DNA from: a virus
Lineage: Duplodnaviria > Caudoviricetes
Virus record (IMG/VR): IMGVR_UViG_2866513116_000002
Coordinates: 1 to 64,000 of that record
DNA length: 64,000 bases
Reading direction: 5' to 3' (one strand)
Under the pieces are notes generated by a model. That model saw only the letters and a program-made list of their open reading frames with translations. It was not told the DNA's origin and did not search any database. Shown here one piece after another: positions 21,058-25,412 of the stretch; positions within the stretch are counted from its first letter, which is position 1; each line of letters starts with the position of its first letter. The translations under genes were made by a program, and so were the position numbers.

Positions 21058-21299
21058 GCGACCCAGCCGTGGAGGCGGCATGGAGGGCATTCGGTGCGCT
21101 GTGGCCAGACCAAGGCCACTTCGAGTTTGACTTTGATTCGAAAGACTATGCGCTGCTCACCGCCCGCGAGATGGCCGCACCGATCCGGGAGCTGCACAAG
21201 CCACGTGGCAGCGGCAGGTTTCAAGAATGCATTGAATGCCACACGCCGTGGCCCTGTGCCACAGCGCGTCTCGTCTACACCGAGGAGGAACTGTCGTGA
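21054..21299 (+). CDS. Hypothetical phage protein
   Basis: PIRELH.P..C.EC..WPCATA..Y..EEL motif common in actinophages. Confidence 0.7.
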   Translation: MSDPAVEAAWRAFGALWPDQGHFEFDFDSKDYALLTAREMAAPIRELHKPRGSGRFQECIECHTPWPCATARLVYTEEELS

Positions 21300-21559
21300 G
21301 TGACGCAGAAGATCGGGCACAGGAATTGCTGTCCTACTACGACTCGTGCCGCGGACGCGGCACGACCATCGCACTCACGGCGGACACCACTGACACCATC
21401 CGCGACCTCATAGCCGACCTCACCAAGGCCCGCAACGTGATCGAGCAGGTGCGGGAGGTAGTCGCCGAGATGTTGGAACAGCTCGTTTCTGGGCCGGAGC
21501 GTCGCGATGTCGAGCGAATCGCGAGCATCCTCGCCGACGCTGAGGGGAGTGGACAGTGA
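21296..21559 (+). CDS. Hypothetical phage protein
   Basis: GAGGAG RBS, GTGA overlap. Confidence 0.6.
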   Translation: MSDAEDRAQELLSYYDSCRGRGTTIALTADTTDTIRDLIADLTKARNVIEQVREVVAEMLEQLVSGPERRDVERIASILADAEGSGQ

Positions 21560-22095
21560 GCGAACTACGCGACCTTGACGACATCCTCGACGATCGACGT
21601 CACCTCGCCTACGTCAGCGACGGCACCAGTGGCAGTGAGAAGGTCGGGCGACTGCTCAATGACGTTGCGCCACTAGTGGATGAGGTTAGGCGTCTCCATA
21701 ACGTGATCGAGCGGGTGCGGGAATACCTGGAGAACGACTGTGGACCATTCATCGCCGCAGATGGGTTCCAATCGTTTCGAGGGGCCGACCGTTCTCGCCT
21801 ACTGGCCATCCTCGCCGACGCTGAGGGGAGTGGACAGCGCGCCAACGGGTTTGCGGTGGTGGAGCTGCCGAAGCCGACGGACACATATAACCACCTGACC
21901 GAAACATCAATGATGGGCTGGGAGATCCCATCGTGGGAACACTTCGTCGAAACCATCGGCAACGAAGTGCAACTGTCGTACAACGGAGAGCCCGAGGAAC
22001 CGTTCAGCTCCGAGGTTGCCCGAGCGTTCGCCGCTGCCCTCTTGGCCGCTGCCGACGCTGCTGATCGTGCCGGGGACGACGGGGAGGGGCGATGA
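21556..22095 (+). CDS. Hypothetical phage protein (apparent fusion of two cassettes)
   Basis: Internal copy of the preceding gene's end (ILADAEGSGQ) without its stop codon. Confidence 0.6.
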   Translation: MSELRDLDDILDDRRHLAYVSDGTSGSEKVGRLLNDVAPLVDEVRRLHNVIERVREYLENDCGPFIAADGFQSFRGADRSRLLAILADAEGSGQRANGFAVVELPKPTDTYNHLTETSMMGWEIPSWEHFVETIGNEVQLSYNGEPEEPFSSEVARAFAAALLAAADAADRAGDDGEGR

Positions 22096-23579
22096 GAACC
22101 GGCTCCCTCTTCTCCGGCTATGCCGGTCTCGACATGGCCGTCAACGCGCACTTCGGCAGCGAGACAGCCTGGTTCGTCGAGAAGGACGCCGCGCCCGCCC
22201 GCATCCTCGCCCACCACTGGCCCGACGTACCCAACCACGGCGACATCACCGCGATCGACTGGGCGGCGGTCGAGCCCGTCGACATCCTCACGGGCGGCTT
22301 CCCCTGCCAGGACGTGAGCGCCGCCGGCAGACGGGCCGGTATTCGCGAGGGCACCCGGTCTGGTCTATGGTCCTACTTCGCCACAGCCATCAATCAGCTC
22401 AAGCCCCGAATGGTGGTGATCGAGAATGTCCGAGGACTCCTATCAACCGCAGCCCATCGCCCAGTGGAATCCGTTGCGGATGCTATGGGAGACGGAGCAG
22501 GGAGACCTGTTCTCCGAGCACTTGGAGCCGTACTCGGCGACCTTTGCGACATCGGGTATGACGCGCAATGGACGACTGTTGCCGCTGCCGACGTCGGCGC
22601 CTGCCACCGACGAGAACGGGTCTTCATTGTCGCCACTCCTCGCGACGCCCCGCGCGTCTCGGGGCGCGAGTTCGAAGGCACTTCTGCCGACGCCGAGCGT
22701 GGCGGATGGGATGGGCGGGCATCTGACGAGATCGGGGAGCCGGTCGGACGAGTTGCTATTACCGGGAGTAGGGAAGCTCCTGCCGACGCCGGTGACCGAA
22801 CCCGAGACAGGGAACGGGAACGCACGGAACCTCGGCAAGGAGGTGAGGTTGCTACCGACGCCGAGCGCATCGAACCCGAACGACGGCGAGGATCTGGCCT
22901 CGTGGGAGGCGCGCCGGGATCGTCTGAAGGCGCAGGGCTGCAACGGGAATGGGATGGGGACGCCGCTCGGCGTCGCGGTGCGGAAGCTGTAGCACTGCCC
23001 CCGACTCCGCGGGCTATGGATGGCCACGGGTCGATGGTTGCCCCGGCCGCGCGTCAGCACGTCGCCGACGGCGCCGGGTCGCTCCCCGAGGTGCTGGGCG
23101 TGCATCTACTCCCGACACCCAAGCAGACCGACCACAAGCACAACGACACCGCCGGCGAACGGGATCGGCGGAGCCCGTCCCTGGGTGCAGTGAACGCACT
23201 CCTTCCCACCCCGAATGCCAGCGACAGCACGGGCGGTGGTCAGCACCCCGACAAGCGTGAAGGGCACTCGCGTCAACTGATCGACTACGCGTTGACGGTG
23301 GCGACCGACTGGGGCGACTACGAGCCCGCGATCCGCCGCGCCGAGAAGGCTTCCGGACGTCCCGCGCCAGCGCCAACCGAGTTGAGCCGCAACGGCAACC
23401 CTCGACTGTCGTCCCGGTTCGCCGAGTGGATGATGATGCTGCCTGAGGGGCATGTCACCGGAGTCGGGTTGTCGCGTAACGAGGAGTTGAAAGCCATTGG
23501 TAACGGAGTTGTTCCTGCGCAAGCCTTTGCGGCGCTGGGGATTCTGACGCCGATCGCCGAGAGCCTGGGGGTGGCCTGA
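22092..23579 (+). CDS. DNA cytosine-C5 methyltransferase
   Basis: Motif I LFSGYAG, IV GFPCQD, VI ENV, VIII HRRERVFI, X IGNGVVP. Confidence 0.92.
   Translation: MRTGSLFSGYAGLDMAVNAHFGSETAWFVEKDAAPARILAHHWPDVPNHGDITAIDWAAVEPVDILTGGFPCQDVSAAGRRAGIREGTRSGLWSYFATAINQLKPRMVVIENVRGLLSTAAHRPVESVADAMGDGAGRPVLRALGAVLGDLCDIGYDAQWTTVAAADVGACHRRERVFIVATPRDAPRVSGREFEGTSADAERGGWDGRASDEIGEPVGRVAITGSREAPADAGDRTRDRERERTEPRQGGEVATDAERIEPERRRGSGLVGGAPGSSEGAGLQREWDGDAARRRGAEAVALPPTPRAMDGHGSMVAPAARQHVADGAGSLPEVLGVHLLPTPKQTDHKHNDTAGERDRRSPSLGAVNALLPTPNASDSTGGGQHPDKREGHSRQLIDYALTVATDWGDYEPAIRRAEKASGRPAPAPTELSRNGNPRLSSRFAEWMMMLPEGHVTGVGLSRNEELKAIGNGVVPAQAFAALGILTPIAESLGVA
22426..22992 (+). CDS. Overlapping +1-frame methyltransferase subunit with LLPTP modules, truncated
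   Basis: ATG inside the ENV codons; LLATP/LLPTP x4 modules matching those in the main ORF's C-terminus. Confidence 0.7.
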   Translation: MSEDSYQPQPIAQWNPLRMLWETEQGDLFSEHLEPYSATFATSGMTRNGRLLPLPTSAPATDENGSSLSPLLATPRASRGASSKALLPTPSVADGMGGHLTRSGSRSDELLLPGVGKLLPTPVTEPETGNGNARNLGKEVRLLPTPSASNPNDGEDLASWEARRDRLKAQGCNGNGMGTPLGVAVRKL

Positions 23580-24250
23580 TGGGCCCCTACTACTCCGATG
23601 ATCTCGTGACGCTGTATCACGGGGATTGTCTCGCGATCACCGAGTGGCTGAAAGCTGATGTCCTGGTGACCGATCCGCCGTACGGCACACAGTTCTCGGG
23701 AGCCAATCCGAAGGGCGGCTACGGGCGGCGACAGAATGCCGGGTTGGGGCCCGAGGGATTCACTATCGCCAACGACGGCACAACAGAGACCCGTGATGCT
23801 GCCCTCACAGCATGGGGTGATAGACCGGCAATGGTCTTCGGAAGCCCTCGGCTACCTGATCCACCGGGAGACTGGATTGACAGGCTCGTATGGGACAAGA
23901 AGCGACCCGGTATGAACGGTGGCCCTTGGCGCTATCGCCATGAATCCATCTACGTCACAGCGGGATTCGAACGACGAAACAACGAGAGTGTGTCGATACT
24001 CGCCGCTTGGCCCGACCAGAAGGACCATATTCACGCGAAACCGCTGGGCCTTATGAGCGCTCTCGTTGACTGCGTCCCAAGGGGCGCGGTGATCGCCGAC
24101 CCATTCGCCGGTTCGGGGTCGACGCTCGTCGCAGCAGTCAATCAGGGCCGCAGGGCAATCGGTGTCGAGTTGGAAGAGAAGTACTGCGAGATCATCGCGC
24201 GGCGGCTGAGCAACCAGACGATGGCCTTTGACTTCGAGGCAGGTGCGTGA
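23579..24250 (+). CDS. DNA N4-C/N6-A methyltransferase (beta class)
   Basis: LYHGDC, TDPPY, H..KP, DPFAGSGST, IGVEL. Confidence 0.92.
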   Translation: MGPYYSDDLVTLYHGDCLAITEWLKADVLVTDPPYGTQFSGANPKGGYGRRQNAGLGPEGFTIANDGTTETRDAALTAWGDRPAMVFGSPRLPDPPGDWIDRLVWDKKRPGMNGGPWRYRHESIYVTAGFERRNNESVSILAAWPDQKDHIHAKPLGLMSALVDCVPRGAVIADPFAGSGSTLVAAVNQGRRAIGVELEEKYCEIIARRLSNQTMAFDFEAGA

Positions 24251-24399
24251 TGGGTCCGTACACATGCCGCTGGTGCGGCCTCGTCTTCGTCGGCCGAGGC
24301 ACCACCCCGGCTGAGACCGCCGTGCAGCGCTGGTCCGATCACACGTGGGAGCACTACACGGAATGGCGAGAAGGCTTAGACGCGAAGGCAGGTGCGTGA
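24250..24399 (+). CDS. 49-aa C2H2-like zinc-finger protein, not in the ORF track
   Basis: MGPYTCRWC..HTWEH..AGA*; coupled at both ends and flanked by a 17-bp direct repeat. Confidence 0.6.
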   Translation: MGPYTCRWCGLVFVGRGTTPAETAVQRWSDHTWEHYTEWREGLDAKAGA

Positions 24400-25412
24400 T
24401 GGCCGACCACACCGACATCGAGTGGACGGACCGGACGTGGAATCCGGTAACGGGTTGCGCCAAGGTATCTCCCGGCTGTGATCACTGCTACGCCGAGGGC
24501 ATCGCTGAGCGGTTCCGCGGCGGGCCGGCGTTCCCGAACGGCTTCGATGTCCAGCTTCGCCCGCATAAGCTGACCGAGCCGTTGCGGTGGCGGAAACCGT
24601 CAAAAGTGTTCGCGAACAGCATGTCTGACCTGTTTCACGATTCGGTTCCCGACGAGTACATCGCGCAGGTGTTCGCCGTCATGGTCATCGCCGAGCATCA
24701 CACGTTCCAAGTCCTGACGAAGCGGCATGGTCGGATGCGATCACTACTTAGCCGCAATGACTTCTGGCGCAGTGTCTACTTGGCGGCTATCGACCTGGGC
24801 GCCGACGATCCTGCTGACGTCTCGACAATCGCACCGCCGAGCAACGTGTGGCTCGGCGTCTCCACCGAGAACCAGCAGTGGGCCGACATCCGGATTCCCG
24901 CGCTGCTCGACACCCCGGCGGCGGTGCGGTTCGTCAGCGCTGAGCCGTTGCTTGGGCCGATCGAGCTGGAGTTCGTGCACTACTTCGACACCGACTGCAA
25001 CGGCTGCTCGGGGATCATCTCTCCCGCACACGAACCAGCCTGTGGCAATGAACCTGGCCGCCACTGGGGTATCGACTGGGTGATCGTCGGCGGCGAGTCT
25101 GGCCCGAAAGCCCGCCCGATGCACCCGGATTGGGCGCGATCACTGCGAGACCAGTGCGCGGAGGCCGGGGTGCCGTTTCACTTCAAGCAGTGGGGTGAGT
25201 GGGTTCCCGAGTCGGCGAACCTCCACGCCGCCAAAGCCGCTGCCGCATTCCTCGACCTCGACGGCACAGTGCGGCCACTCGTCAACGGATACCCAACCAC
25301 CCCGCCAATGAGTCGCGGAGAAGCCATCACGATCCGCCGCGTCGGTAAGAAACGCGCTGGCCGGGTGCTCGACGGGCGGACGTGGGACCAGTTCCCGGGC
25401 GGTGAGGCGTGA
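24399..25412 (+). CDS. DUF5131 / Gp37-Gp68 family protein
   Basis: IEWTD.TWNPVTGC.KVSPGCDHCYAE, SMSDLFH, WVIVGGESG, FHFKQWG. Confidence 0.92.
   Translation: MADHTDIEWTDRTWNPVTGCAKVSPGCDHCYAEGIAERFRGGPAFPNGFDVQLRPHKLTEPLRWRKPSKVFANSMSDLFHDSVPDEYIAQVFAVMVIAEHHTFQVLTKRHGRMRSLLSRNDFWRSVYLAAIDLGADDPADVSTIAPPSNVWLGVSTENQQWADIRIPALLDTPAAVRFVSAEPLLGPIELEFVHYFDTDCNGCSGIISPAHEPACGNEPGRHWGIDWVIVGGESGPKARPMHPDWARSLRDQCAEAGVPFHFKQWGEWVPESANLHAAKAAAAFLDLDGTVRPLVNGYPTTPPMSRGEAITIRRVGKKRAGRVLDGRTWDQFPGGEA

Follow-up and report, generated by a model that had tools for sequence, protein, structure and literature searches.

The 64,000-nucleotide stretch of viral DNA analyzed here (positions 1 to 64,000 of IMG/VR record IMGVR_UViG_2866513116_000002, Caudoviricetes; hereafter the window) carries a prophage gene for a predicted C5 DNA methyltransferase, within which a second open reading frame (ORF) is nested in the +1 frame. 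The methyltransferase gene, whose frame is called frame 0, occupies positions 22092..23579 on the + strand and encodes 495 aa, with catalytic motifs I-VIII followed by a read-through linker, three modules headed by LLPTP and motifs IX-X. It is present in a single copy in its own genome (4.5 Mb; the window lies within contig 18). The translation and the Pfam and TIGR00675 matches place the catalytic part at 22092..22652 (+), with motifs I (FSGYAG), IV (FPCQ), VI (ENV) and VIII (HRRERVF), while the motif IX-X region (WGDYEPAIRR ... EWMMM ... GNGVVP) at 23310..23576 (+) consists of invariant and near-invariant columns. FSGYAG, FPCQ, ENV, HRRERVF and GNGVVP are all read in frame 0 and form invariant columns in 47 relatives. 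The PF00145 profile was matched at 115.7 bits against a cut-off of 22 (E 3.8e-33) over residues 1-187 only (profile positions 1-166 of 324), and TIGR00675 at 100.4 bits over residues 1-189, slightly below its cut-off of 100.65. The PHROG phage methyltransferase profile phrog_363 covered residues 1-482 (E 1.7e-70), and the catalytic part matched M.HhaI chains with phmmer (E 2.4e-10). On the PF00145 cut-off and the motifs, the frame-0 product is thus classified as a C5 DNA cytosine methyltransferase. From motif VIII to position 22992, frame 0 encodes about 110 residues rich in R/G/E/D/A; this linker (about residues 188-300; 22653..22991, +) is stop-free and corresponds to an out-of-frame reading of modules encoded in the +1 frame.

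The nested +1 gene (22426..22992, +) encodes 188 aa, comprising an N-terminal region (N-region) and four LLPTP-type modules, and stops at the TAG at 22990-22992. Its ATG (22426-22428) is formed within GAG AAT GTC, the codons of the ENV motif, and a likely ribosome-binding stretch, GGTGGTGATC together with the ATG (22412..22428, +), lies within frame-0 codons V-V-I-E-N-V. The N-region (+1 residues 8-62; 22447..22611, +) reads PIAQWNP..LWET..SGMTRNG..LPLPTSA and is overprinted on frame-0 motifs VI-VIII, so that this segment is predicted to code in both frames. The +1 ORF matched phrog_1008, annotated as "DNA methyltransferase" (E 7.9e-23), and its sequence is present letter for letter in the ESM Atlas. 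No match was found in Pfam or NCBIfam, and a PDB sequence search with the +1 chain returned chance-level rows alone (E 0.023 and 0.56). The first 80 residues of the +1 protein retrieved 696 representatives at E<=1e-3 from a library of 1.84 billion proteins. Among the 150 listed matches to the N-region, 143 start within the first 19 residues of the called protein, which shows that gene callers do pick up the +1 ORF, and some of the matched proteins run on to motifs IX-X (P0010, P0019, P0123 and P0138). Residues W14, N15, W21, E22, G44 and G49 are invariant in 68 sequences. Judged by this conservation, the +1 ORF begins with a conserved domain of about 60 residues, which shares its DNA with motifs VI-VIII.

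Seven modules of 15-47 residues, each headed by LL(A/P)TP or a close variant, are arranged in tandem between motifs VIII and IX. Four of them (22636..22989, +) are read in the +1 frame, with starts at 22636 (LLATP), 22681, 22777 and 22849 (LLPTP), that is, at +1 residues 71, 86, 118 and 142. The other three (22995..23309, +) are read in frame 0 and start at 22995 (LPPTP), 23106 and 23199 (LLPTP); the last one is of a type conserved across the family, NASD.TGGGQHPD.REGHSRQLIDYAL (consensus of 50 C-terminal parts). The two arrays meet at the junction CTG TAG CA CTG CCC CCG ACT CCG (22987..23009, +), where the +1 stop stands 5 nt ahead of the first frame-0 module. The +1 frame ends there with AAG CTG TAG, and frame 0 reads GTA GCA CTG CCC CCG ACT CCG (V A L P P T P); deleting the TA of the TAG would put both module arrays into one frame. 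Third-position G+C follows the same division, being high in frame 0 (0.87-0.97) up to about 22400-22407, then in the +1 frame (0.77-0.90) up to about 23040-23080, and again in frame 0 beyond. A first-pass annotation of this DNA had described the +1 ORF from an ATG inside ENV, its four LL(A/P)TP modules and its TAG at a module boundary, all of which are present. It had also described three further modules with motifs IX-X in the main frame, where modules 1-4 read as an R/G/E-rich linker, and this was confirmed. Its layout of two frames, modules and junction therefore stands; it had missed the conserved N-terminal domain of about 60 residues and the +1 start site.

To place this layout among relatives, we examined loci fetched from IMG/VR through the +1 N-region with a 13-sequence alignment, which gave 80 loci, 78 of them unique. 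Because these loci share ancestry and undergo recombination, the counts given below cannot be treated as independent observations. Modules and motifs were defined by regular expressions, which misclassified a few loci such as L112. ENV and motif VII/VIII were found in the -1 frame relative to the N-region in 78/78 unique loci; the N-region therefore never stands alone and is always overprinted on motifs VI-VIII. Motifs IX-X lie in frame 0 in 61 of these loci (fused) and in the +1 frame in seven (split), the remaining 10 being unclear or cut; L112, scored as unclear, proved to be fused on read-through. At a broader level, blastn returned 488 phage records with partial matches of 71-76% identity, and tblastn with the +1 protein returned 363 records. 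A near-identical allele was not found among 60 relatives, the best partial match having 73% identity over 345 bases. Three-frame reading of relatives recovered the same order as in the window: motifs I-VIII in frame 0, modules in the +1 frame, then modules and motifs IX-X in frame 0. This order is found in Gordonia phage Derg gp4, in Mycobacterium phages Babsiella gp54, prophi91-4 gp24 and Tweety gp72, in two Nocardia prophages, in three Leucobacter prophages and in a dozen IMG/VR contigs. The Babsiella record already annotates the nested gene as gp55 ("DNA methylase domain protein").

The frame change at a module boundary recurs in these relatives. At least one frame-0 module is present in 53 of 67 unique fused loci, and the +1 stop lies no more than 12 nt before the first one in 43/53, at a distance of exactly 5 nt in 36 of the 53 (...N TAG AC CTG...). 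Ahead of later frame-0 modules, such a stop was found in only 4/100 cases, which makes the stop specific to the junction. The first-pass annotation had ascribed the frame change near 22990 to a small indel. The change is not particular to this genome: the layout of the window is the commonest state of the family (61/78 fused), and its junction words (AAG CTG TAG C.CT) are also found in L034/L045 and at the loose end of a metagenome contig. An assembly or sequencing error at about 22990 would be a most implausible explanation, since it must recreate by chance the junction of the family, an open 495-aa frame (frame 0 of the window stays open in 8% of shuffles of the +1 codons) and the words shared with L034/L045 and the metagenome contig. 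In its favor, no reads of the source strain were found that span the junction: a search of sequencing runs gave no source-strain or RNA run, the best run containing 17% of the sampled words and matching exactly over 23200-23517 only. The metagenome contig (run coded X2) is about 88% like the second +1 module of the window (22684-22776), diverges at 22776 and continues as ...GGGGAAGCTGTAGCGCTGC, the junction words that the window reaches 210 bases later. Since the contig reaches these words earlier, the window seems to have two extra +1 modules relative to it and to L034/L045.

The position of the junction within the module array differs between loci. The remaining 14/67 unique fused loci have no frame-0 LLPTP module, and their modules are found only in the +1 chain. 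At L085 and the Leucobacter prophage locus L021, the frame changes right before WG.Y..AI.RWE, and all modules are in the +1 chain. Among relatives, a given type of module can be read in either frame; for example, the RAMD.HGSMVAPA module is read in the +1 frame in prophi91-4 and a Nocardia prophage (L003/L019) and in frame 0 in the window. As the module type that precedes the stop varies between loci, the junction falls at different places in the array. One tight clade with near-identical catalytic parts has one to four modules in the +1 frame and two to four in frame 0, which points to a fast re-dealing of modules. Module number, which the first-pass annotation had proposed to compare among homologous loci, thus varies in both frames among near-identical cores; the comparison did not give the ancestral state, for which the annotation had assumed an overlapping alpha/beta pair. 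In a quick midpoint-rooted tree of 58 catalytic parts, which recombination makes a weak guide, the split label needs at least three changes, and one split locus falls within a starred fused clade.

Split alpha/beta relatives with an overlapping beta in the +1 frame, a type of enzyme to which the first-pass annotation had likened the locus, do exist in the family (7/78 viral loci). In Dorothy gp71/gp72 and ByChance gp63/gp64, frame 0 is closed by a stop codon downstream of motif VIII and motifs IX-X are reached in the +1 frame, so that the +1 chain of split relatives also holds these motifs. The Dorothy (L004) and ByChance (L005) copies differ by small indels directly after motif VIII, and at about 2000-2200 of both loci a module ..SPVAHPSGNSPEAHLRKKPGR..VTDLAIIVENNLLET reads in the third frame; these two copies may be decaying. 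Proteins that end in ...P.QLSLD were at first set apart as a third class, defined by a distinct tail (...G..T.P.S..G....P.QLSLD in P0040, P0068, P0072, P0066, P0108, P0149 and P0151). At L112 and L085 the tail turned out to be what the conserved frame-0 motif IX region encodes when read in the +1 frame; its conservation is therefore a by-product and does not define a domain, and the class was dropped.

Selection was then evaluated in each frame. The segment bounded by the end of motif VIII and the +1 stop was compared over 349 ungapped aligned blocks with 70-97% identity. The ratio of nonsynonymous to synonymous differences (pN/pS) was 0.24 for the +1 frame, as against 2.60 for frame 0 and 2.07 for the third frame. 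These values indicate that the +1 modules form a conserved protein and that the frame-0 reading of the linker is free to change. Frame 0 is nevertheless open across the linker in 68/77 unique loci, against 25.0 expected from shuffles of the +1 codons, whereas the third-frame control gave 10 open loci against 9.0 expected. This excess suggests that frame 0 is read through and that only its openness matters. An intron or intein as the origin of the linker was rejected, as the +1 frame of the linker encodes modules that are under selection and resemble those in frame 0. The four modules could instead have been put out of frame by an old pair of compensating indels, in which case frame 0 alone would matter and the lack of stops in the +1 frame would be a chance effect of high G+C. 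At 64% G+C, ORFs in other frames are frequent, and the Dorothy and ByChance copies look decayed, with one module even in the third frame. Such a remnant is contradicted by the pN/pS of 0.24 in the +1 frame against 2.60 in frame 0, and by a conserved +1 start and LLPTP and N-region invariants kept over 68 sequences; we hold it to be very unlikely.

The overlap with the catalytic motifs leaves its own trace in frame 0. In the ungapped 175-codon catalytic part of 48 unique sequences, codons between motif I and ENV show synonymous differences at a rate of 0.47; the rate falls to 0.19 over codons 120-165 and returns to 0.52 afterwards, and a 16-sequence version of the analysis agrees. The 46-codon segment with the lowest rate begins at codon 119, the site of the +1 tryptophan in ...IAQWNP.... 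Counted from this conserved tryptophan, a +1 start codon (ATG, GTG or TTG) is found 7 or 13 codons upstream (W-7 or W-13) in 83/84 unique related loci. In most loci the start is a GTG at W-7, made by frame-0 codons AGT GCN (Ser-Ala) and preceded by GAGAGGA or AAGGGG 8-12 nt upstream, from frame-0 Arg-Gly codons. In 48 sequences, the frame-0 codons at this GTG-type start are rare ones that build AGRGGR...AGT G: the arginine is AGA/AGG in 42/48 (12% among upstream Arg codons), the glycine GGA/GGG in 44/47 glycine codons (24% background) and the serine AGT in 40/47 serine codons (6% background). In most loci, rare frame-0 codons thus build what, from its sequence, is a Shine-Dalgarno site upstream of the +1 start. 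An ATG start is found in 18 of the 84 loci, mostly at W-13 as in the window, and the Asn of ENV is AAT in 10/48. In the window, the ATG is preceded by a GGTGATC stretch that is presumably able to pair with the 3' tail of 16S rRNA. Judged by these patterns of sequence evolution, selection acts to maintain both frames, though the constraint differs in kind between them. The proposal of the first-pass annotation that both frames are real coding sequence is borne out in this sense, and the +1 ORF is conserved (pN/pS 0.24; 83/84 starts).

The two arrays could also be joined by recoding, with a +1 ribosome shift after motif VIII and a back-shift or hop at the TAG that together yield one seven-module chain, the +1 ORF upstream of motif VIII being incidental. 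Skipping one base after ...FIVA plus the TA of the TAG does join all parts in canonical order, and CTG TAG NN CT., a leucine take-off and landing pair, is found at 12/53 junctions, including that of the window. We consider this improbable, as neither site has a conserved slippery motif and the codon before the stop varies (CTG, GCG, CCG, GAG, ATG, GAT...), most junctions having GCG, CCG, GAG or ATG there, which are unfit for a hop. Bypass at CTG TAG NN CTG was accordingly rejected as a general mechanism, as it fits 12/53 junctions only. Recoding would moreover need no open frame 0 in the linker, yet this frame is open in 68/77 loci where 25 are expected, and it leaves unexplained both the start and Shine-Dalgarno codons 65 codons upstream and the synonymous constraint in the N-region.

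Structure models were obtained with AlphaFold2, using alignments of 47 rows for the frame-0 chain and 68 rows for the +1 chain. In the frame-0 chain, the predicted local distance difference test score (pLDDT) is about 95 over residues 1-189, apart from a weak loop at 121-139, and over residues 400-490, with values of 92-98 in the motif IX-X region. It drops to 30-46 over residues 190-353 (30-38 in the linker) and stays mostly below 50 up to residue 394, a span made up of the linker and the three frame-0 modules. In the +1 chain, the N-region is modelled as short beta strands with a pLDDT of 71-89, and the modules reach 50-59, with one helix at residues 157-170. The models support a folded core and a folded N-region and are silent on the modules.

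Several known systems resemble this arrangement in part. M.AquI is a split C5 methyltransferase, with motifs I-VIII on its alpha chain and IX-X on its beta chain. The split relatives (Dorothy gp71/72, L061, L090, L101, L105 and L113) are similar in having motifs I-VIII on one chain, everything else on another, and overlapping ORFs, while the window differs in carrying motifs I-VIII and IX-X on one chain and in an overlap of about 65 codons that is constrained in both frames. The multispecific C5 methyltransferases of Bacillus phages SPR, phi3T and rho11s have tandem target-recognising domains in one frame and on one chain, and the individual specificities of these domains have been proven by experiment. 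The tandem short modules between motifs VIII and IX in the window are comparable in layout only; here the array is divided between two frames, and a specificity of the modules is inferred. HsdS, the specificity subunit of Type I restriction-modification systems, is separate from catalysis, modular and recombining. Should the modules recognise targets, the +1 chain would be like HsdS in placing this function on a chain apart from catalysis; the enzyme class is different, there is no homology, and HsdS is not nested in a catalytic gene.

Two further systems share the out-of-frame position itself. In M.EcoHK31I, the methyltransferase gene also specifies a second polypeptide through a different reading frame, and the enzyme is active only when both chains come together (PMC2836561). 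The small beta chain has motif IX and the alpha chain motifs I-VIII, X and the target-recognition domain (TRD). The comparison with M.EcoHK31I drawn in the first-pass annotation is apt. As in M.EcoHK31I, the +1 ORF of the window lies within the frame-0 ORF, which selection, start site and synonymous constraint suggest is no accident of sequence. The window differs in that motifs IX-X are in frame 0, that the nested chain would consist of a novel N-terminal domain and TRD-like modules, and that the nested ORF overlaps motifs VI-VIII; the likeness drawn here is one of layout. The second system is the "ShiLan domain" (PMC11855218), a hidden out-of-frame HNH endonuclease in an actinophage methylase. 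Its ORF begins with GTG and terminates right where the stop-free stretch does, and it is a mobile homing endonuclease of patchy distribution. The host frame is kept stop-free over a hidden out-of-frame gene in both cases, but the ShiLan element is hosted by a different methylase family (Dorothy_75 type), whereas the hidden ORF of the window is made of the enzyme's own kind of module and is present in every family member examined.

Taken together, this prophage gene for a C5 DNA methyltransferase is probably dual-coding and gives rise to two polypeptides, which would make up a two-chain enzyme like M.EcoHK31I or M.AquI. The first chain, of 495 aa, would comprise the catalytic core (I-VIII), a spacer of about 110 residues, three LLPTP modules and motifs IX-X; the spacer would be the out-of-frame reading of the nested gene, selected for openness alone. 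The second chain, of 188 aa, would start from its own ATG inside ENV with a small N-terminal domain, continue with four LLPTP modules and end at the TAG on the module boundary where the arrays change frame. The LLPTP modules stand at the TRD position of C5 enzymes and may be the target-recognising units. We infer that the +1 chain could dock on the core via its N-terminal domain and supply recognition modules in trans. A docking role is suggested by the folded N-terminal domain, which all +1 chains have and all frame-0 chains lack, and the relatives without frame-0 modules, like the split ones, would need the +1 chain to have any modules.

Some points weigh against this interpretation of the locus as a two-polypeptide enzyme. 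The case for translation of the +1 ORF comes from sequence evolution only, and the kinship and recombination among the loci mean that the counts overstate independent support. The window has the rarer ATG start type, with a Shine-Dalgarno-like stretch weaker than that of the GTG type. A recognition role of the modules is deduced from position and repeat architecture, not from a fold match: the LLPTP modules are poorly modelled in both chains (pLDDT 30-59), and fold searches with the +1 model gave no usable match (best E 3.2 with Foldseek against the PDB; best Z 2.2 in the wide VIA-align search). Finally, the frame-0 chain of the window, with its three modules, might suffice as an enzyme by itself.

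This last point bears on the possibility that the +1 chain is made and selected but is no methyltransferase subunit, acting instead as a regulator or competitor, as a separate DNA-binding protein or as an easily recombining cassette, with frame 0 encoding the whole enzyme. In the window, no catalytic motif is missing from frame 0, its three modules include the conserved last type, and AlphaFold2 folds its core without the +1 chain. Against this, the +1 modules are of the same types as frame-0 modules of relatives, the +1 chain is the sole carrier of modules in 14/67 fused loci, and in split relatives it also bears motifs IX-X. We therefore find a role outside the enzyme unlikely, if less so than recoding, and retain the two-polypeptide methyltransferase as the preferred reading.

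Other features were observed around the nested gene in relatives. In L034 (at about 500-1010), L045, L051 and L060, a LAGLIDADG-type ORF in the +1 frame is inserted directly after ENVRGLLSA; the insertion is accompanied by a short duplication (..AHRP) and introduces no stop into frame 0. In L034, this ORF ends one codon ahead of the start of the +1 N-region gene. LAGLIDADG-type ORFs are also found in proteins P0036, P0043, P0071 and P0051; the ORF is fused to the N-region in three database proteins and is located after the N-region in P0051. The insertion resembles the hidden out-of-frame endonuclease of PMC11855218. Tweety-like phages (L006/L029/L043/L050) carry two copies of the family 1.3 kb apart, each with its own +1 ORF; in Tweety, gp69 is a short copy that ends soon after the first frame-0 module, and gp72 is the complete one.

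In the window, the gene environment is phage-like. The start of the next gene (23576-24250, with its first codon at 23579) overlaps the methyltransferase stop (TGATG), and its product is predicted to be an N4/N6 DNA methylase (PF01555, E 4.4e-17). Because the C5 gene adjoins this gene, the prophage has two different DNA methylases side by side. A DUF5131 gene follows at 24345-25412 (E 2.7e-102). Upstream, the ORFs at 21236-21559 and 21556-22095 have stretches in common (NVIEQVREV../NVIERVREY.. and ..ILADAEGSGQ in both), which suggests that the downstream ORF is a longer paralogue of the upstream one; Pfam gave no match for either.

To our knowledge, bacteria and phages rarely have long overlaps in which both frames are coding. 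A dual-frame overlap is seldom backed by so many lines of sequence evidence, and this family spans hundreds of database clusters. A description of its nested ORF was not found in the open literature searched. Annotation of the family is inconsistent, some records having a single gene, others two genes or a nested "domain protein", and the frame-0 "linker" is no real domain. The N-region would clearly exemplify how a new protein domain can arise by overprinting, here on one of the most highly conserved enzyme motifs. More tentatively, and with rather less confidence than in the two-polypeptide reading of the locus itself, the actinophage C5 methyltransferases of this family might be two-part enzymes in general. 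The nested gene would then encode a specificity subunit with a docking domain and exchangeable modules, a 2-nt TA junction, movable to any module boundary, would split the modules into cis and trans arrays, and recombination at LLPTP would re-deal the target sets among catalytic cores that are nearly identical. If true, overprinting would have given a C5 enzyme a Type I-like division of labour. If the +1 chain is a trans-acting recognition subunit, it would represent a new architecture for C5 methyltransferases and a natural modular scaffold for targeted methylation, and it would explain how phages quickly re-assort their anti-restriction specificities.

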